Positions 2-28,318 of a stretch of 44,537 nucleotides of DNA are shown piece by piece. The stretch is taken from assembly GCA_034027115.1 (NCBI GenBank), contig GCA_034027115.1_4703.1, one strand, 5' to 3'. This stretch comes from a phage. Made by a program: the position numbers and the translations under genes. A model generated the notes under the pieces. It worked only from the letters and a program-made list of their open reading frames with translations. It did not search any database and was not told the origin of the DNA. Each line of letters starts with the position of its first letter. The stretch's first letter is position 1.

Positions 2-1273
2 GGTACAGCCAGTTACAACATAGTCAGTAATGTTATAGGGGCAGATTGCCAGCATGTAACTTACAACGGCACTGAAGGGCCAATAGCTCCTTCTAATAAC
101 CTTATCAAGGGGGTGATGGCTAATAACCCTAAGTATGCAGCGGTTGTTGCAGGCAAAGGAAGTACGAACTTAATCTCAGACGTGCTCGTAGGTTACTCAA
201 CTTCTGATGCTAGTCAGGCTCATGGTGTTACCGTAGAAGGGTCTGATAACGTCATAAATAATGTGCTTATGTCAGGATGTGATGGTACTAACTCTTTAGG
301 ACAAAGGCAGACTGCTACAATTGCACGCTTTATAGGTACAGCTAATAACAACTATGCGTCTGTATTTCCTAGCTACAGTGCTACAGGCGTTATTACTTTC
401 GAATCCGGCTCTACCCGTAACTTCGTAGAGGTAAAGCACCCTGGCAGGAGAAACGACCTTCTCAGTTCTGCTAGTACTATTGACGGTGCATCTACTATTG
501 ACGGCACTAATAATAGTAACGTAGTACACGCACCTGCCTTAGGGCAGTACATAGGTAGTATGTCAGGTAGGTTCGAATGGCGGATTAAGTCCATGTCACC
601 CCCTTCAGGCGTTCTTACTTCTGCTGATAAGTACAGAATGCTTGGGGATGGTGCTGTATCATTAGCTTTAGGTGGGGGTACTTCTTCTCAAGTTCGCCTA
701 TTTACTTCTGATGGTACTTCTCGGACAGTGTCCCTCACCAACGGTAACGTGCGTCTTTCTACCAGTACAGGCTATTTGCAGTTAGGTGCTAATGCAATGA
801 CCCCAGATAGTACTGGTACATACGCATTAGGTTCCGCCAGTCGAGCATGGTCTGGCGGTTATACTCAAGCAGCATTCACTGTTACATCAGATGCTCGGTG
901 TAAAACAGAACCTCTTACTATCTCAGATGCCTTACTGGATGCTTGGTCTGAAGTTGACTTTGTGCAGTTTAAGTATTTGGATCGTGTTGAGGAGAAGGGT
1001 GCAGACTCAGCTAGATGGCACTTTGGCATCATAGCTCAGCGAGCTAAGGAGGCTTTCGAACGCCACGGTATAGATGCACATCGCTATGGCTTCTTGTGTT
1101 TCGACAGTTGGGATGATGTATACGAGGAAGATGCCAATGGCTCTCGTAAACTGATTACACCAGCAGGTTCCCGCTACGGTATTCGTTACGAGGAAGTACT
1201 GATATTAGAGGCTGCGTTGATGCGGCGGACTATTAAGCGTATGCAGGAAGCACTAGCTTCCTTGCCTAAGTAA
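2..1273 (+). CDS. Tailspike/tail fibre protein, C-terminal portion; ORF is open to the window edge, so the 5' end lies outside. Ends in an intramolecular-chaperone (peptidase S74-like) domain.
   Basis: Frame is open from position 2 with no stop until 1271-1273; the first in-frame ATG at 113 is not the true start. Translation has the S-D-x-R-x-K autocleavage-type motif (TSDARCK) followed by ...WHFGIIAQRAKEAFERHGIDAHRYGFLCFDSWDD, typical of endosialidase/tail-fibre C-terminal chaperone domains. Confidence 0.8.
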   Translation, partial: GTASYNIVSNVIGADCQHVTYNGTEGPIAPSNNLIKGVMANNPKYAAVVAGKGSTNLISDVLVGYSTSDASQAHGVTVEGSDNVINNVLMSGCDGTNSLGQRQTATIARFIGTANNNYASVFPSYSATGVITFESGSTRNFVEVKHPGRRNDLLSSASTIDGASTIDGTNNSNVVHAPALGQYIGSMSGRFEWRIKSMSPPSGVLTSADKYRMLGDGAVSLALGGGTSSQVRLFTSDGTSRTVSLTNGNVRLSTSTGYLQLGANAMTPDSTGTYALGSASRAWSGGYTQAAFTVTSDARCKTEPLTISDALLDAWSEVDFVQFKYLDRVEEKGADSARWHFGIIAQRAKEAFERHGIDAHRYGFLCFDSWDDVYEEDANGSRKLITPAGSRYGIRYEEVLILEAALMRRTIKRMQEALASLPK

Positions 1274-1357: not shown

Positions 1358-3409
1358 ATGCTTCAAAGACTAGGGGCTTCCTTGGTGAAGTTCAAGAGTA
1401 AACTCGCTGGTGCCATCGAACGTATACTCTCAGACAAGTTAATGGACACTGTAAGCGTTAAAGATTTTGGCGCTAAAGGAGATGGTATCTCAGATGATAC
1501 TGCTGCTTTCAAAGCAGCAATAACTTGTGGCGCATCTCGTGTATTAGTACCTGCTGGTAGGTATGTGATTACTGACACCCTTTCTTTGCCATCTGGGGTC
1601 TGGTTATTGGGTGAGGGTGTTGACTATTGGGATACCTATCGTCCAGACGAGGGTAGGCTTATTAAGTCATGGAGTAAAGGAACGCACCTTGTGTTCACTG
1701 GCAGTGGGCCTAAAAACAAGCAATTTCTTAATATCTCTAATGAACGCCCAACAAAGACAATAAATAAAGTAACCTGCTCTTTTACCGACTTCACCAATAG
1801 TGATGCACAAGCAACAAAACCTGCTACACCACGTAGTATGAGTATTGCTGTATCAGTACAGGCAGGCAGTGGCTTACGCGATCTTCGTATTATGGTAAAC
1901 AATGAAGGTATCTCTGGTTACAATGACTTTGTTTCTACAAACAAGCTAGGTGACAACTGGGATATTGGGTTGCATGTATATGACAGCTCAGATGCTGTAA
2001 TTGATAATGTGCAAGTTGTTGGCTATTGGAGGGTTGCAGGTACACTCTTAACGGAGAACGACGGCTCCATCACAATGCGTGGTAATCCAGAGAAGACACT
2101 ATTTAATAAGTTCTACACTCAAGGTATCAGAGGTTTACTTATTAGGAATAGCCCACAAGTAGATGTAGTATCTCAAGAGTCAGCAACCAAGTTAACCATT
2201 AAAGCGAATGCTACGTCCCGTATATTAGCACAAAATGGTTTTCGAGTAGCAGGTAGTACTACGATACATAGATGGACTAGTGTTACAAGACAAGGAGACA
2301 CTTATGTATTAGATGGCATCACACCTGCGTTACCTTCTGCTTCTGACCTCGGGGTTGTTCATTTCCCATCTATGGGTAACAATTGGTCTGGTACAGTGTT
2401 CAACAATACTGTTGCTGTGTCCTTTGAGCACTCATCCGGTAGCACCTCAAGACAACTAGGACTTCCTGTATCTTTTGCTATGGAGATTGATGGCTTCCCT
2501 TGTCGTAACCTCAAGTTCATAAACTTCAAGGCACAGACTTCTTACGATGAAGGAAATACATTGTTTGGTGATATGCGCGATGCCAAGTTTGTGGCTAGTG
2601 AGTTCGAGAATGGTAGGTTGATTGCGTACGATTTGTCTCAGACCCAAGGGTACACTGGGAATATGCGGTCTGCTGTGTCTGACATGCAGTTTCATTCTAC
2701 TAATATTGAGGGCTTCACACCACGTGATTTCTTCTATGACCTAGGACACTTTCCTACTTCTTACACTGATGGTTCTTTTATCATGAAGCATTGGAGAGAA
2801 AAGGATTTACAGGTACAATGGTATAATGGTAAAGCATTCATCCGTCTACATGAAGATGATGGCCGTGTAACACTTACCAGTAAAGATGGTCTAGATTTGT
2901 ATAACTTTAGTTCTACAAAAGACGTGACGTTCAATGGTCGCAATTTTGTATTCAAAAACGATGTAAGTGAAGACGTATTGAAGTGGTTTGGCGGTTCAGG
3001 GGATATCTCTACGAAAGGCAACATCTCGCCTATGGTAGATGGGACTGCCTCTCTGGGTACAAATTTCTATCGCTGGGGCGCAGTGCATTCAGTAAATGGG
3101 ACGTTACAAACCTCTGACGGTAGGCTAAAGGAGATCCATGATATTAAACAAGAAGAACTTGATGCGGGGATTGCATTATCAGCAAGTCTAATCAAGTACC
3201 GTTGGTATGGAGAAGAAAAGTTCCACTTTGGTTGTATTGCCCAAGAGGTAATGTTAATCATGGAGAAACATAATCTAGACCCATTACAGTATGGAATGGT
3301 GCAGTATGATGAAGAGGCAGACATCTTTAGTGTAAACTATGCTGAATTGAACAGCTTCTGCATCGCAGCTCTGTCTAGGAGGTTGAATGCCATTAATCAA
3401 ATCAGTTAA
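1358..3409 (+). CDS. Tailspike protein (683 aa) with pectate-lyase-like right-handed beta-helix and C-terminal intramolecular chaperone domain; probable capsule/LPS depolymerase.
   Basis: SD AAAGGAGG 7 nt upstream of ATG. N-terminal VKDFGAKGDGISDDTAAFKAAI...VPAGRYVI motif typical of pectate-lyase-fold tailspikes. C-terminal TSDGRLKEIHDIK...FHFGCIAQEV chaperone motif. Confidence 0.85.
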   Translation: MLQRLGASLVKFKSKLAGAIERILSDKLMDTVSVKDFGAKGDGISDDTAAFKAAITCGASRVLVPAGRYVITDTLSLPSGVWLLGEGVDYWDTYRPDEGRLIKSWSKGTHLVFTGSGPKNKQFLNISNERPTKTINKVTCSFTDFTNSDAQATKPATPRSMSIAVSVQAGSGLRDLRIMVNNEGISGYNDFVSTNKLGDNWDIGLHVYDSSDAVIDNVQVVGYWRVAGTLLTENDGSITMRGNPEKTLFNKFYTQGIRGLLIRNSPQVDVVSQESATKLTIKANATSRILAQNGFRVAGSTTIHRWTSVTRQGDTYVLDGITPALPSASDLGVVHFPSMGNNWSGTVFNNTVAVSFEHSSGSTSRQLGLPVSFAMEIDGFPCRNLKFINFKAQTSYDEGNTLFGDMRDAKFVASEFENGRLIAYDLSQTQGYTGNMRSAVSDMQFHSTNIEGFTPRDFFYDLGHFPTSYTDGSFIMKHWREKDLQVQWYNGKAFIRLHEDDGRVTLTSKDGLDLYNFSSTKDVTFNGRNFVFKNDVSEDVLKWFGGSGDISTKGNISPMVDGTASLGTNFYRWGAVHSVNGTLQTSDGRLKEIHDIKQEELDAGIALSASLIKYRWYGEEKFHFGCIAQEVMLIMEKHNLDPLQYGMVQYDEEADIFSVNYAELNSFCIAALSRRLNAINQIS

Positions 3410-4984: not shown

Positions 4985-5126
4985 AAGCATCAAGACGGCG
5001 ACGTCTTTAAACATCCCGCTCTTTAACAATTTGGATGGTAACTTCTTAGTCTGGATAGGTTAAACCTAGGAGATTCTCTTGAGTCTCCTATAATGTAACC
5101 TAACTAACTAAATGAGGATTAATAAC

Positions 5127-5486
5127 ATGGCTATGTCTAATATGACTTACTCTCAGGTTTACAACACCGCTCATGCTGCATTAGTTGAACGTATCTGGAA
5201 TGATGCTATTGATTGTATTGATAACGCACATGATGCAATCCATGATGTGGCGGATAGTGCTGTACCAATCTATTATGCTGACATCTTCTCCGTGATGGCG
5301 AGTGAAGGAATTGATCATTTCTTCGAAGACTCCGGCCTGATGCCAGACACTAAGGATGTAACGGTAGTCTTGCAAGCCCGTATCTATGAGCAACTCACAA
5401 TTGATCTATGGGAACGTGTTCAGTATATGATTGTTGAATACGTCAACTCCGCCGAATATTTAGAAGAAGAAGAAGAGGAAGAATAA
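5127..5486 (+). CDS. ocr: Ocr-like DNA-mimic anti-restriction protein (T7 gp0.3 family).
   Basis: Translation MAMSNMTY...[34 protein letters not shown]...[14 protein letters not shown]... closely matches T7 Ocr as I recall it; poly-Glu C-terminus; GAGGA SD 8 nt upstream of the ATG at 5127 (the ORF track start at 5112 is an upstream in-frame ATG). Confidence 0.9.
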
Positions 5487-16613: not shown

Positions 16614-16991
16614 ATGTCTATGGTAACTACTCTGGTATTTGTAGCTCAATACTTTCGTGGTCTGGCTAATAAGTTCAAGTCCAAGGCTATCAAAGTTATT
16701 GAGTCTCGCATCGAGGCAGTACAGGCAGAGCAAGTTAAAGTTGAAGAACATCGTAGTTCTAAAATGATTGACTGCCATAACCGCTACTATGCATCTCGTG
16801 ATGACCTTAATGCACGCCAAGTCAAAGAGGTTGAAGAGATGCTGGCACGTCACCAGCAAGAGCGCGACAGTCTGAAAGCTGAATTTGAAGAGAACAAGGC
16901 ATCCATCGCCCTTGTACATCAAGCCGCATCTGACAGCCTGAAGAAAGAGATTGTTATGCTGGAAATTGAGTTAGACAACCTGACCAAATAA
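16614..16991 (+). CDS. Hypothetical protein (125 aa), hydrophobic N-terminus plus coiled-coil.
   Basis: SD TAGGAG; heptad-like charged C-terminal region. Confidence 0.55.
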   Translation: MSMVTTLVFVAQYFRGLANKFKSKAIKVIESRIEAVQAEQVKVEEHRSSKMIDCHNRYYASRDDLNARQVKEVEEMLARHQQERDSLKAEFEENKASIALVHQAASDSLKKEIVMLEIELDNLTK

Positions 16992-20358: not shown

Positions 20359-21358
20359 GCTTCGCAGCTTGTACAAAGACTCCGAGGTACTTGATGCAAT
20401 CGAGCAAGCTACCGACGAGAAAGGTAATGTTAATTACAATGAGATGGCACGTGTATTATCGTGTCACCCTGTGGGTAAGAAGATTACCCGCCAGTTGGCT
20501 CGATACTGGCATGGTCAATTCAAGAAGACCAAGAAGAATGGTGATTATTACCAGACCCTTCTGCAAGAAGATAAGCGTATCAAAGAAGAGCGTAAGCTCA
20601 GGACTCCTGACCGCTACGAGGATTTGGCTATTGTACCATTGCCTGACTCGCCTCATCGAAGTGTATTGGTAATCCCTGATACTCATGCACCTTATGAGCA
20701 TCCAGATACCTTAGAGTTCCTTGCAGCAGTCGCGGCACGTTACCGTCCAGATACAGTGGTTCACTTAGGAGATGAGGCAGATAAACACGCCCTCTCCTTC
20801 CATGACTCTGACCCGAATCTGGATAGTGCTGGCATGGAGCTAGAGAAGGCTCGTGTCTTCATGCACAAGTTGCACAAGATGTTCCCTGTGATGCGCCTGT
20901 GTCATTCTAATCACGGCTCTATGCACTTCCGTAAGGCAAGCGCCAAGGGTATTCCAGTGCAATATCTTCGCACCTACCGTGAAGTCTTCTTCCCAAATGG
21001 AGGTGGCGACCAGTGGGATTGGCAGCATACACATGTTCTTGAGTTGCCGAATGGCGAACAGGTGGCATTCAAGCATCAACCTGCTGGCTCTGTCCTAGCA
21101 GATGCAGCGCATGAGCGTATGAACCTTGTGTGTGGTCACTTGCACGGTAAGATGTCTGTGGAGTACGCACGTAATACACATGAACAGTATTGGGCTGTGC
21201 AAGGTGGCTGCTTAATTGATGAGTCATCCCGTGCATTTGCCTATGGGCGTGAGTCTAAATACAAGCCAGCATTAGGTTGTGTGGTTATTCTGGAGGGTGT
21301 ACCTCATATTGTCCCGATGCAAACCAATAGCGACAACCGTTGGATTGGCAAGATTTAG
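20353..21358 (+). CDS. Calcineurin-like metallophosphoesterase (start uncertain: TTG 20353 after AGGAGG, or a later ATG).
   Basis: Ordered motifs DTHAP, GDEAD, SNHG and GHLHG are the phosphoesterase signature set (DxH, GDxxD, GNH[DE], GHxH). Confidence 0.8.
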
Positions 21359-21373
21359 TTGACACTATAGAAC
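21353..21373 (+). promoter_or_regulatory. Phage promoter variant (ATTTAGTTGACACTATAGAAC).
   Basis: Overlaps the phosphoesterase stop codon; core CACTATAGAA intact. Confidence 0.55.
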
Positions 21374-22137: not shown

Positions 22138-23081
22138 ACATCTTCCAATTCCTAGGTCTTCCAGAAGACCACCGCAATCATCCATTCATGCTGGTGAAGC
22201 ATCGCGGTGAAGTTCCTGAGAAGAAACTTACTTTTCCATGTTATGCACAGGTGAAACGAGATGGAATATTCAGTGCTGTTGTGGTGCGCAATGATGGTGC
22301 TGTTGCCATCTTTGGTCGTACTGGTAAGAAGCTCGCAAATGTTGAATCCTTGGAAAAGACGTTTAGTGTATTTCCTGTCGGGTTGTATCTTGGTGAGTTG
22401 CAATCTATGGCTGTTGATGTTTATCTTGAAGCTCTGTCAGGAGTGGTAAACCCTAATCGTACAGAGCCACTTGACTTCATAGGCCAGCAGATTAAAGACA
22501 ACCTGTATATCGACTTCTTCGATATGTTAACTATTAAGGCATTCCATGATGGATTCACTGATGTTTCTTATCTCAAACGTTACGATGCTTTACATCGTCG
22601 CATCGGCGCCCATCTTAGCGGGTACAACGCTATCCTTCCTATTACTCCTTGCCATAATGAGCGAGAAGTTGAAGCGTTTGCGCAAGAGCAGATAGACGCA
22701 GGCCGAGAAGGTGCGGTATTTAAACTTGACGTGGAGTACGAAAGTGGGCACAAGGGCTATCGTCAAACGAAGATCGTTCGTATGGTATCTTATGACCTCA
22801 CCTGCATTGGGTGGGAGGAAGGAAAAGGTAAGTATAAAGGTAAAGTAGCTAATTTAATCTTTAAATGGAAAGGTGGTAAGTCCGTTAAGGCTATGCTGGG
22901 GCGTGGCTGGTCACATGAGGATGCAGCACAGATGTATCACGATATTAAACACGGTGGCGAACTAAACGTCATTGGGAAAATCTTCGCTGTTAAGGCGTTA
23001 CAGGAATCTAGTAAGGGAGTCCTGAGACTTCCCAAGGTTTCTGAACTTAGGTTTGATAAGGAAGTCCCTGATGTCTTCTAA
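22134..23081 (+). CDS. ATP-dependent DNA ligase.
   Basis: Active-site KxDG motif (QVKRDGIFSAV); GAAGGAGG SD. Confidence 0.85.
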   Translation: MNIFQFLGLPEDHRNHPFMLVKHRGEVPEKKLTFPCYAQVKRDGIFSAVVVRNDGAVAIFGRTGKKLANVESLEKTFSVFPVGLYLGELQSMAVDVYLEALSGVVNPNRTEPLDFIGQQIKDNLYIDFFDMLTIKAFHDGFTDVSYLKRYDALHRRIGAHLSGYNAILPITPCHNEREVEAFAQEQIDAGREGAVFKLDVEYESGHKGYRQTKIVRMVSYDLTCIGWEEGKGKYKGKVANLIFKWKGGKSVKAMLGRGWSHEDAAQMYHDIKHGGELNVIGKIFAVKALQESSKGVLRLPKVSELRFDKEVPDVF

Positions 23082-23556
23082 TCCAAATTATCGAAAACCA
23101 CCTCGTACACCGCCAAGACCACTTGCCTACTGTCCTTTTACTGGAAAGCTTTTCCGTAAGTTCAAAGATGGCTGGAGAGAAACAGGACTTAGCAGAAAGA
23201 GTGATGGATATTTACAGTGTAAAGTCGATGGTAAGACTGTAAGTGTTCATGTTTTAGCAATGAATATGATGGGTTATGACACTACCGGCTTTACAGTAGA
23301 TCACATAAATCATATACGCTGGGATAATAGGTTTATTAATCTACGTCTATTATCTCATAAAGATAATTGTTTAAATAGAGAGGCGATACATATAAGTAAG
23401 CTGCCGAGTGGTAACTACAGAGCGCGATGTGGAAATGTTCATCTTGGCGTATTTGAGGATAAGTTACTTGCTCGTGGTGCTATCCTATGGTATCGCCATA
23501 GGGGATTTAATAATGTTAAATTCAATGAAGGCAACGCGTGCCGTAGAAGTAGCTGA
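23071..23556 (+). CDS. HNH homing endonuclease.
   Basis: DHINHIRWDNRFINLRLLSHKDN HNH signature; overlaps the ligase 3' end. Confidence 0.8.
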   Translation: MSSNPNYRKPPRTPPRPLAYCPFTGKLFRKFKDGWRETGLSRKSDGYLQCKVDGKTVSVHVLAMNMMGYDTTGFTVDHINHIRWDNRFINLRLLSHKDNCLNREAIHISKLPSGNYRARCGNVHLGVFEDKLLARGAILWYRHRGFNNVKFNEGNACRRSS

Positions 23557-23707
23557 AGCTATCTTTGAAACTTTATCCTGCGGCATGGAAGTGCCATATA
23601 CTTTACTTGCTGATGCAGAAGAACTTGGTCTTTCTGTAGAAGCTATCCAAGAGAAGGTTGACGAATTATATGGTACAGACGAAGAAGAAACCGACGATTT
23701 CATTTGA
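23513..23707 (+). CDS. Small acidic protein (64 aa), hypothetical.
   Basis: In-frame ATG at 23513; C-terminus ...GTDEEETDDFI. Confidence 0.4.
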   Translation: MLNSMKATRAVEVAEAIFETLSCGMEVPYTLLADAEELGLSVEAIQEKVDELYGTDEEETDDFI

Positions 23708-23836
23708 AGGAATGGAGATGCTTGAGATGATTCTCAAGCCTTCTTCTCCTAAGGTGACTAAGACTCATGAAGAGTTAATCGTTGATGAAGTTAAGCGTTA
23801 CATCATGGATTGTGTCAGAGCACAACTGGTGATCCA

Positions 23837-24298
23837 ATGATACGTCCAGCTTCCTTCCTAGATATTCCTGAGATTATAAACCTTGGGAATAAATATGTGG
23901 AAGAGGAAGTCAAGGTTGTAGCCCACCACTCAGCCTCATGGAATGCAGAACAAAGTGCACATAACCTTTGTGCATCTCTTAGTAGAGAAGATTTATTCCT
24001 ATGGGTTGCTGTAGATGAAGGGCAGATTGTAGGGTTCCTGTGGGCTGGCTATCACGAGTTGGCCCCTTGGACACCTGTAAGAGTTGCCTCTGACATTCTC
24101 TTTTATATTATACCAGAGAGGCGAGGAACACTTCTTGGTATGCGTCTCATCAAAGCCCTAAAGCAATGGGCTAGTGATAATGAATGCTCTGAGGTTCGCC
24201 TGTCTATCGCCTCTGGTATCAATGAAGAACGTGTCGGACGTATGTATAAGCGACTTGGCTTTGAACCGTTTGGCACTGTGTATAACCTGAAGTTCTAA
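23837..24298 (+). CDS. GNAT-family N-acetyltransferase.
   Basis: IVGFLWAGY...RRGTLLGMRLIKALKQWASDNECSEVRLSI...YKRLGF resembles the acetyl-CoA-binding core of GNAT enzymes; start taken at ATG 23837. Confidence 0.7.
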   Translation: MIRPASFLDIPEIINLGNKYVEEEVKVVAHHSASWNAEQSAHNLCASLSREDLFLWVAVDEGQIVGFLWAGYHELAPWTPVRVASDILFYIIPERRGTLLGMRLIKALKQWASDNECSEVRLSIASGINEERVGRMYKRLGFEPFGTVYNLKF

Positions 24299-24307
24299 GG
24301 AGATAAC

Positions 24308-24517
24308 ATGGGTGTTGTAAAGAAAGCATTTAAGGCTATCGGTCTTGCTCAAGATGCACCACGTATTGAAGCGAAAGTGCCAGCACAGCAGCTTGAGCGT
24401 AAGCCAGAGACTGAAGCTGAAGATATTCAGATTGGTGCAGGAGATGATGATGCTACTGCATCTGCAAAAGGCAAGCGTGGCCTTGTCCGTCCGGTAGCTT
24501 CTAGCTTGAAGGTGTAA
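24308..24517 (+). CDS. Small protein upstream of the portal gene (69 aa); possible minor virion protein.
   Basis: AAGGAGA SD; by position only. Confidence 0.5.
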   Translation: MGVVKKAFKAIGLAQDAPRIEAKVPAQQLERKPETEAEDIQIGAGDDDATASAKGKRGLVRPVASSLKV

Positions 24518-24518
24518 T

Positions 24519-26069
24519 ATGAAACAGAGCACAGATTTGGAGTATGGAGGTAAGCGGTCTAAGATACCTAAGCTATGGGAGAAATTCTCCACTAAACGTA
24601 GCTCTTTCCTTGATAGGGCGAAGCATTACTCCAAATTAACCTTGCCCTATCTGATGAATGACAAAGGTGATAACGAGACTTCGCAGAATGGATGGCAAGG
24701 TGTAGGTGCTCAGGCAACCAACCATCTAGCCAACAAGCTAGCGCAAGTACTATTCCCTGCACAGCGTTCCTTCTTCCGTGTAGACTTAACTGCACAAGGT
24801 GAGAAGGTTCTTAATCAGCGTGGCCTGAAGAAGACAGAGCTAGCTACCATCTTCGCTCAAGTGGAAACACGGGCAATGAAAGAGTTAGAGCAACGTCAAT
24901 TCCGGCCTGCTGTAGTAGAAGCATTTAAGCATCTTATTGTTGCTGGCAGCTGTATGCTATACAAGCCGAGCAAAGGTGCAATCAGTGCTATCCCAATGCA
25001 TCACTACGTAGTTAACCGTGATACCAATGGCGACCTGTTAGACATTATCTTGCTACAAGAGAAAGCCTTACGTACCTTTGACCCAGCTACACGTGCTGTA
25101 GTAGAGGTTGGCCTGAAAGGTAAGAAGTGCAAAGAAGATGACAGCGTTAAGCTGTACACACATGCTAAGTATCTTGGTGATGGATTTTGGGAACTCAAGC
25201 AATCTGCTGATGATATCCCTGTGGGTAAGGTGAGTAAAATCAAATCAGAAAAGCTACCTTTCATCCCATTAACTTGGAAGCGAAGCTATGGTGAGGATTG
25301 GGGTCGCCCTCTTGCAGAGGATTACTCCGGTGATTTATTCGTTATCCAATTCTTATCTGAAGCGGTTGCCCGTGGTGCTGCGCTGATGGCAGATATCAAG
25401 TACCTGATTCGTCCGGGTGCTCAAACTGATGTTGACCACTTTGTTAACTCTGGCACTGGTGAGGTTATCACTGGTGTAGAAGAAGACATCCATATTGTAC
25501 AGTTAGGTAAGTATGCAGACCTCACACCTATTAGCGCGGTTCTAGAGGTATACACTCGCCGTATCGGTGTTGTCTTCATGATGGAGACAATGACACGCCG
25601 TGACGCCGAACGTGTTACTGCTGTAGAAATCCAGCGAGATGCGTTAGAGATTGAGCAGAACATGGGTGGTGTATACTCCCTCTTTGCTACTACTATGCAA
25701 TCGCCAGTAGCGATGTGGGGTCTGCTGGAGGCAGGGGAGTCCTTCACTAGTGACCTAGTGGACCCTGTGATTATCACAGGTATTGAAGCTTTAGGACGCA
25801 TGGCTGAGTTGGATAAACTGGCTAACTTTGCTCAGTATATGTCACTGCCATTACAATGGCCTGAGCCTGTCCTAGCTGCTGTGAAATGGCCTGACTATAT
25901 GGATTGGGTGCGTGGTCAAATCTCTGCTGAACTGCCGTTCCTTAAATCGGCTGAAGAGATAGCACAAGAACAGGAAGCACAGATGCAAGCACAGCAAGCA
26001 CAGATGCTTGAAGAAGGTGTGGCTAAGGCCGTGCCGGGTGTAATTCAACAAGAACTTAAGGAGGCGTAA
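24519..26069 (+). CDS. Portal (head-tail connector) protein, T7 gp8-like.
   Basis: Size (516 aa), position before scaffold and capsid, acidic C-terminal region. Confidence 0.9.
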   Translation: MKQSTDLEYGGKRSKIPKLWEKFSTKRSSFLDRAKHYSKLTLPYLMNDKGDNETSQNGWQGVGAQATNHLANKLAQVLFPAQRSFFRVDLTAQGEKVLNQRGLKKTELATIFAQVETRAMKELEQRQFRPAVVEAFKHLIVAGSCMLYKPSKGAISAIPMHHYVVNRDTNGDLLDIILLQEKALRTFDPATRAVVEVGLKGKKCKEDDSVKLYTHAKYLGDGFWELKQSADDIPVGKVSKIKSEKLPFIPLTWKRSYGEDWGRPLAEDYSGDLFVIQFLSEAVARGAALMADIKYLIRPGAQTDVDHFVNSGTGEVITGVEEDIHIVQLGKYADLTPISAVLEVYTRRIGVVFMMETMTRRDAERVTAVEIQRDALEIEQNMGGVYSLFATTMQSPVAMWGLLEAGESFTSDLVDPVIITGIEALGRMAELDKLANFAQYMSLPLQWPEPVLAAVKWPDYMDWVRGQISAELPFLKSAEEIAQEQEAQMQAQQAQMLEEGVAKAVPGVIQQELKEA

Positions 26070-26995: not shown

Positions 26996-27018
26996 ATTTA
27001 CTGGACACTATAGAAGGG
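26996..27018 (+). promoter_or_regulatory. Phage promoter, consensus copy, upstream of the major capsid gene.
   Basis: ATTTACTGGACACTATAGAAGGG. Confidence 0.7.
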
Positions 27019-28277: not shown

Positions 28278-28285
28278 TACCTATG

Positions 28286-28318
28286 CCCTATCTACCTTGC
28301 GTAGGTAGGGTTCTTTTT
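28286..28318 (+). terminator. Putative rho-independent terminator after the capsid gene.
   Basis: CCCTATCTACC-ttgcgta-GGTAGGG followed by TTCTTTTT. Confidence 0.55.

Follow-up and report, generated by a model that had tools for sequence, protein, structure and literature searches.

The open reading frame (ORF) at positions 23837-24298 of GCA_034027115.1_4703.1, a 44,537-nucleotide stretch of phage DNA that is called the window below and on which all positions are numbered, is a real GNAT-fold acetyltransferase gene, far more than a chance ORF, and its product is very probably a small single-domain enzyme that uses acetyl-CoA and is catalytically competent, to judge from its sequence. Both the coordinates, which proved exact, and the GNAT assignment had been given in an original prediction that was made from the letters of the DNA without database searches. 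The gene is already known, being annotated, near-universal and ordinary in the SP6/K1-5-like phages, and what interest remains comes from the fact, so far unexplained, that the T7-like phages conserve a GNAT-fold gene in their 'gene-7 slot'. With regard to its function, the reading that we tentatively prefer, while accepting that it may well be wrong, is that of an active acetyl-CoA-dependent acetyltransferase that would act on proteins of the infected cell, with a host target, by analogy to Rac of the Pseudomonas phage LUZ19, being slightly favoured.

The assignment is based on profile matches and on the predicted fold. The Pfam profile PF00583 (Acetyltransf_1) matched residues 33-142 well above its gathering score (E 3.4e-10, 40.6 bits vs 20.7) and was aligned through the entire cofactor region of the protein, PF13508 (Acetyltransf_7) was also above its cut-off (E 2.1e-9, 38.1 bits vs 27), and the match to PHROG 1249, which is annotated as 'acetyltransferase', had an E value of 2.4e-53. 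The original prediction had named the placement of the ORF in a non-GNAT family as a result that would refute it, and no profile gave such a placement. The structure prediction that it had proposed as a check was obtained with AlphaFold2 from 42 sequences (mean predicted local distance difference test score (pLDDT) 90.4, predicted template modelling score 0.86), and the order of the elements in the model, β1, α1, α2, β2, β3, β4, α3, β5, α4, β6 and β7, is that of a canonical GNAT. Several of the best structural neighbours of this model are protein acetyltransferases, namely Hpa2, Ard1, Naa60, Naa30 and a RimI-like enzyme, which counts in favour of a protein substrate. Additionally, the ratio of non-synonymous to synonymous substitution rates (dN/dS) that was calculated against SP6, with the synonymous sites near saturation, was 0.14 for the GNAT gene compared to 0.05 for the portal gene, 0.05 for the ligase gene and 0.19 for the scaffold gene. 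Because of this low value, the gene is, as far as substitution patterns indicate, under purifying selection and is a working gene.

The conservation of individual residues was counted over 182 members of the family. In the loop between β4 and α3, which corresponds to the pyrophosphate-binding motif A of the GNAT enzymes, R96 was conserved in 99% and G97 in 88% of the sequences. In the HMMER alignments, the segment R96-G97-T-L-L-G101 was placed on RGQGIG of SSAT2 and on RGGGIG of 4j3g, and SSAT2, 4j3g and PA4866 all carry R-G-x-G-x-G at this position. When compared with the motif A pattern Q/R-x-x-G-x-G/A, positions 1 and 6 of the loop fit, while position 4 is a leucine and varies across the family. 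The original prediction had stated that the absence of the acetyl-CoA-binding motif would refute it; the loop was found to be present, but only in a variant form in which the canonical glycine at position 4 is replaced. In motif A, pyrophosphate is bound through backbone amides, and for this reason the sequence alone does not decide whether the variant loop is functional. Two further positions are candidates for a catalytic role. Position 86, the candidate general base, was Asp in 83% and Glu in 9% of the family members (92% together), and the alignments put D86 on the acidic β4 residue of SSAT2, 4j3g and PA4866, which is the Glu of 'VEH' in PA4866 and of 'SSEL' in 4j3g. Position 137, the candidate general acid, was Tyr in 73% and Phe in 14% (87% together), and Y137 aligned with the Tyr of 'DLYKALG' in SSAT2.

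The DNA of the region was 97-99% identical to Vectrevirus genomes such as those of the Escherichia phages 6949, LI10P3 and K1-5, and hence the window, which is about one genome long, is, by this identity, a K1-5-like Vectrevirus of the SP6 group (Autographiviridae, Molineuxvirinae). The orthologues of the gene in K1-5 (gp27, YP_654128) and in SP6 (gp28, NP_853588) are both annotated as 'acetyltransferase' in RefSeq and both belong to PHROG 1249. SP6 gp28 is 75% identical to the window protein, has the same length of 153 amino acids (aa) and the same position, and the other Vectrevirus copies are 95-100% identical, including identical or 99%-identical ones. In K1-5 and SP6, the order of the genes is the same as in the window: small ORFs, the GNAT gene, a 69-aa gene and the portal gene. 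Relatives of the protein were detected using tblastn in 237 of 50,697 phage records from hosts as different as Escherichia, Klebsiella, Salmonella, Proteus, Erwinia, Pectobacterium, Vibrio, Aeromonas, Pseudomonas syringae, Shewanella and roseobacters, and an exhaustive HMMER search returned 2,487 cluster representatives at E ≤1e-3. A GNAT copy with at least 60% identity was present in 137 records compared to 148 records with a portal protein at least 60% identical, which makes the gene close to core in the SP6-like phages. The claim that a GNAT enzyme is unusual in a 44-kb lytic podophage therefore does not hold for a gene that is annotated in RefSeq and near-universal in this group.

The K1-5 reference gp27 differs from the window protein in a 22-aa in-frame insertion after α1, which arose from a 66-nucleotide tandem duplication (L001:4398-4530) in which the first copy is one base short while the frame is kept; the window has no such repeat. 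Among the matches listed, K1-5 was the only relative whose match was split in two, and the duplication may have arisen by mutation in the laboratory or through faulty assembly. The sequence of the window is permuted relative to K1-5, and so its numbering differs, as it starts inside the K5-lyase tailspike gene; in the tail spike of PDB 9vvr, residues 458-842 correspond to the ORF at 113..1273, which also matches the K5 lyase 2x3h. A second tailspike gene (1358..3409) encodes a beta-helix depolymerase for which no endosialidase match was found, and because of this the phage may not be K1-specific.

The coordinates of the gene, of its candidate functional residues and of the surrounding features are collected in the table.

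Table. Features of the GNAT gene and its surroundings, with positions on the 44,537-nucleotide window
Feature	Position	Strand	Remarks
GNAT-fold N-acetyltransferase coding sequence	23837..24298	+	153 aa, 17.4 kDa, isoelectric point 5.8; orthologue of K1-5 gp27 / SP6 gp28
R96-G97-T98-L99-L100-G101, β4-α3 loop (GNAT motif A, pyrophosphate-binding)	24122..24139	+	variant R-G-x-x-x-G
D86 codon, β4	24092..24094	+	candidate general base; putative catalytic role
Y137 codon, α4	24245..24247	+	candidate general acid; putative catalytic role
60-aa ORF upstream of the GNAT gene	23658..23840	+	PHROG 6507, E 1.1e-36
69-aa gene between the GNAT and portal genes	24308..24517	+	PHROG 1320, E 8.7e-12; PHROG 9033, E 3.6e-13
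Portal (head-to-tail connector) gene	24519..26069	+	Pfam PF12236, E 1.2e-87
SP6-type phage RNA polymerase promoter, ATTTAGTTGACACTATAGAAC	21353..21373	+	nearest upstream of the GNAT gene; function predicted from the consensus
Next SP6-type promoter, before the capsid gene	26996..27016	+	downstream limit of the stretch free of internal promoters
Starts of the exact ACACTATAG matches	9684, 11986, 12834, 16536, 16999, 18230, 21362, 27005, 39656, 42193, 43866	+	

The gene begins with an ATG at 23837, which is also the start annotated in K1-5, and ends with a TAA at 24296-24298. The TGA of the preceding 60-aa ORF and the ATG of the GNAT gene share bases (ATGA), and overlaps of this kind are typical of translationally coupled phage genes. 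On the 5' side lie the genes for an exonuclease, an endonuclease VII, a phosphoesterase, a kinase-like protein, a ligase and an HNH endonuclease, followed by two small ORFs, and on the 3' side the 69-aa gene is followed by the portal, scaffold and capsid genes, which agrees with the earlier placement of the gene at the boundary between the replication and structural modules. It had also been described as lying just upstream of the portal gene; it is near it but does not adjoin it directly, since the 69-aa gene stands in between, which leaves the GNAT gene one gene away. T7 gp7.3 matched PHROG 1320 with an E value of 9.7e-30, which identifies PHROG 1320 as the gp7.3 family, and by its match to the same family the 69-aa protein is a homologue of T7 gp7.3, a small virion/adsorption protein. 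The gene belongs to this family and not to that of gp6.7; its RefSeq counterpart in K1-5 is unnamed ('28'). The ORF of the HNH endonuclease (23053-23556; Pfam HNH_3, E 6.8e-9; PHROG 99) lies between the ligase gene, whose end it overlaps, and gp25. This region is absent from K1-5 and was matched by only about four of 78 close relatives, and the ORF probably stems from the insertion of a homing endonuclease, which took the place of the N-terminus of gp25. A 144-aa ORF on the - strand (24158-24592), which runs antisense from the first part of the portal gene through the gp7.3-like gene into the last part of the GNAT gene, all three conserved and on the + strand, was rejected as probably spurious because every gene that was identified in the window is on the + strand.

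Eleven SP6-type promoter matches with the consensus ATTTACTGGACACTATAGAAG were found on the + strand; all of them are exact matches to ACACTATAG and have the common flanks ATTTACTGG...AAG. A scan with this consensus returned no match between the promoter nearest upstream of the GNAT gene and the one before the capsid gene. Because these are the nearest promoters, the GNAT gene is presumably co-transcribed by the phage RNA polymerase (RNAP) with the ligase, portal and scaffold genes in the middle-to-late period. Sigma-70 promoter-like sites around the gene were at chance level (13 found vs 11.4 expected). Terminator-like sites were more common than in shuffled sequences (11 found vs 5.3 expected), and the only convincing one is a strong hairpin at 28285-28311, after the capsid gene. 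An Rfam scan of the whole window gave no match.

According to the mechanism that we tentatively prefer, the phage RNAP would transcribe the GNAT gene from the promoter near 21353 together with its neighbours, the enzyme, as a middle-to-late product, would acetylate amino groups on proteins in the infected cell, and host proteins would be the favoured targets, as part of the host shut-off. Host targets are favoured because Rac is the only characterised GNAT in the slot, i.e., by analogy. Rac is gp28 of LUZ19, a phiKMV-like phage, and represents PHROG 3986; it has a GNAT fold and 157 aa compared to the 153 aa of the window protein, and both carry a β4-α3 loop of the P-E-x-R-G type. The order of the genes in LUZ19, a small ORF, the GNAT gene (Rac), a small virion protein, the portal, the scaffold and the capsid, is the same as that in the window. 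It was shown that Rac triggers the cleavage of the C-terminal domain of the RNAP alpha subunit and raises protein lysine acetylation, and that this effect is lost when the predicted acetyl-CoA pocket is mutated (PMC7552054). The two phages differ in that the Rac gene follows the phage RNAP gene, while in the window the RNAP gene lies about 14 kb upstream of the GNAT gene.

Several observations weigh against this reading. The effect of Rac is limited to Phikmvvirus, and the LKA1 homologue does not cleave the alpha subunit (PMC7552054); moreover, according to the literature, Rac had no effect in P. putida, its cleavage of the alpha subunit being specific to Phikmvvirus on P. aeruginosa. The window protein was rejected as a member of the Rac family: BLASTP found no similarity between it and Rac, it had no match to PHROG 3986 at E ≤0.01, and the hidden Markov model (HMM) of its own family scored six Rac relatives at 3-17 bits, which is below the 23 bits that the generic Pfam GNAT model gave on Rac. 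In favour of the reading, a profile-profile alignment of the two families reached a probability of 94.8% (E 5e-8, 122 columns, 16% identity), and four of the six Rac-family proteins matched PHROG 1249 with E values between 5e-4 and 9e-3. Judged from these comparisons, homology between the window protein and Rac holds at the superfamily level only. Furthermore, the canonical glycine at position 4 of motif A is missing and is not conserved in the family, and literature searches returned no functional study of K1-5 gp27 or SP6 gp28. The list of structural neighbours is flat (Z 15 to 17.6) across protein, polyamine, aminoglycoside and phosphinothricin enzymes, and for this reason it does not single out a substrate class. 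A further point in favour of the reading, although a weak negative one, is that factors of the T7 gp2 or gp0.7 type that act on the host RNAP were not recognised among 20 small early and middle ORFs. All of these ORFs fall in PHROGs of unknown function except for an Ocr-like protein and one member of a 'polysaccharide chain length determinant' family. The former, an anti-restriction protein, is encoded at 5112-5486 (PHROG 2568, E 9e-47) and the latter, with 125 aa, at 16614-16991 (PHROG 7450, E 5e-69).

Substrate-defined families were also considered, and all of the NCBIfam equivalogs that were matched were rejected: ArsN1a (27.6 vs a cut-off of 170), AAC(6') group E (25.2 vs 140), RimI (22.6 vs 86.4) and MshD (19.9 vs 163). 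In the structural comparisons, the phosphinothricin/BAR and ArsN acetyltransferases, SSAT1/2, the RimI-like 4j3g, Naa10/50/60, Hpa2 and AAC(6') were 14-26% identical to the window protein. With every equivalog match far below its cut-off and with identities this low, no substrate can be transferred from a characterised enzyme. The sequence matches in the PDB were weak as well, the best being 4j3g (E 7.6e-6).

The most credible alternative, which we regard as possible but doubt, is a role in morphogenesis or infectivity, in which the protein would acetylate, or bind and chaperone, a virion component produced in the same period, for example the gp7.3-like protein, the portal, the tail or the internal proteins, and would thereby condition infectivity or host range. 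The fixed linkage of the gene to those for gp7.3 and the portal, the 'host range' label of T7 gene 7 and the gene context in SIO1 all point in this direction; however, the synteny may be mere inherited gene order, and the gene at the SIO1-type position was called 'nonstructural' by Hardies et al. (PMC4819975). Moreover, T7 gp7 lacks both the R-G loop and helix α4, and its role may thus not involve acetylation, and no acetylated virion protein is known for these phages. It is unlikely that the enzyme is a small-molecule N-acetyltransferase that tunes the chemistry of the infected cell by modifying a polyamine, an amino or nucleotide sugar, an aminoglycoside or another amine metabolite. Its closest sequences in the PDB do include SSAT1, SSAT2, the phosphinothricin and arsinothricin acetyltransferases, the polyamine enzyme DpA and AAC(6'), and the three conserved acidic residues D9, E23 and D86 would suit a cationic amine. 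Nevertheless, none of the NCBIfam matches comes near its cut-off, the identity to any characterised enzyme in the structural comparisons listed is at most 26%, and a fixed slot in the morphogenesis region across very different hosts would be unusual for a metabolic add-on gene.

Two further explanations appear improbable. The enzyme might acetylate and inactivate a host immune protein in the manner of AcrVA5, and phage GNATs have indeed been proposed as conflict effectors (PMC5512222), while a GNAT of a mobile element that acetylates Cas12a is cited as a precedent in PMC7552054. Anti-defence genes, however, are usually early, variable and patchy, whereas the GNAT gene is middle-to-late, fixed and near-core from Vibrio to Escherichia, and a scan against PADLOC-DB gave a single non-significant match (PDC-M11A, E 0.017, 12 bits); we therefore consider this role very unlikely. 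The least probable account is that of a non-catalytic remnant of the GNAT fold, which would have no more than a binding role or would be dispensable. Such a remnant would be in line with the non-canonical motif A, with the in-frame duplication in the K1-5 reference gene and with the appearance of T7 gp7 as a degenerate GNAT, but it does not agree with the conservation of R96, G97 and the acidic residue 86, each at least 88% conserved, nor with that of Tyr/Phe at position 137, with the dN/dS of the gene or with the span of the Pfam profile over the whole cofactor region. A decision between a role in host shut-off and one in the infectivity of the particle would fill a gap in the biology of these phages and might explain T7 gene 7. 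Therapy against capsulated E. coli, Klebsiella and Salmonella makes use of Vectrevirus and SP6-like phages.

The comparison with other phages showed that the slot before the gp7.3-like and portal genes is widely occupied by a GNAT-fold gene. The order small ORF, GNAT gene, small gene, portal, scaffold and capsid was found in the Vibrio phage phi-A318 and the P. syringae phage uligo (Colwellvirinae) as well as in SP6 and the Pectobacterium phage PP1, and in all four the small downstream gene belongs to PHROG 1320 and/or 9033. Another 208 records have a GNAT of a second family, Rac, in this slot. LUZ19 and other members of the Krylovirinae carry a PHROG 3986 GNAT there, with a small virion protein and the portal next in order; in Ghunavirus, which is placed in the subfamily of T7 itself, the genes that come after the PHROG 3986 GNAT are one of PHROG 1320 (gp7.3) and the portal. 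Thus, the succession of a GNAT-fold gene, a gp7.3-like or other small virion-protein gene and the portal recurs in the Colwellvirinae, Ghunavirus, the phiKMV-like phages and T7. In at least four subfamilies of the T7-like phages, a small GNAT-fold gene occupies the same position, and only Rac among them has been studied. To our knowledge, no substrate has been reported for any GNAT-fold protein of the slot. The positional equivalence of the occupants is exact, while homology at the superfamily level does not prove common descent.

A related acetyltransferase at a different position was described by Hardies et al. in 2016: in the SIO1-type phages, a gene of an acetyltransferase family lies between those for the tubular tail protein B and the internal virion protein B (PMC4819975). 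The SIO1 protein, which has 27% identity to that of the window, is a member of PHROG 1249 (E 2e-36), but its gene lies by the tail and internal virion genes, whereas the GNAT gene of the window precedes the portal gene. The same authors reported that T7 gp13 (IVP-A) matches acetyltransferases and that the SIO1-type acetyltransferase is found at that position (PMC4819975). When T7 gp13 was compared with the window family in single-sequence HMM and hhalign tests, no signal was obtained.

In T7, the slot is taken by gene 7, which is labelled 'host range'; gene 7.3 follows it directly, and the portal gene 8 is close by. The 133-aa product of gene 7 represents PHROG 2746, to which the window protein had no match, and the two have only the slot and the predicted fold in common; five Rac-family proteins did match PHROG 2746, with E values between 1e-5 and 8e-4. 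The AlphaFold2 model of T7 gp7, which was built from 11 sequences (pLDDT 90.6), has the elements β1, α1, α2, β2, β3, β4, α3, β5 and β6. A conserved R-G cofactor loop and helix α4 are both absent from the T7 gp7 family, which has no Pfam domain on record and hence no Pfam GNAT match, and its profile alignment with the window family was weak (probability 39%, E 3e-4). On the basis of the predicted model, T7 gp7 is probably a degenerate, non-catalytic GNAT fold; our literature search found no published statement of a GNAT fold in this protein. It is conceivable, although we consider it rather doubtful, that a single ancient GNAT lineage has held the slot since the common ancestor of the Autographiviridae, that it has diverged into the SP6/Colwellvirinae type, the Rac of the phiKMV-like phages and Ghunavirus, and the degenerate gp7 of T7, and that the window enzyme represents its catalytically intact form, with acetylation-dependent control of host takeover or of particle infectivity as the shared role. 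If this were true, it would account for the 'host range' phenotype long associated with T7 gene 7, and Rac would be a special case of a family-wide mechanism.
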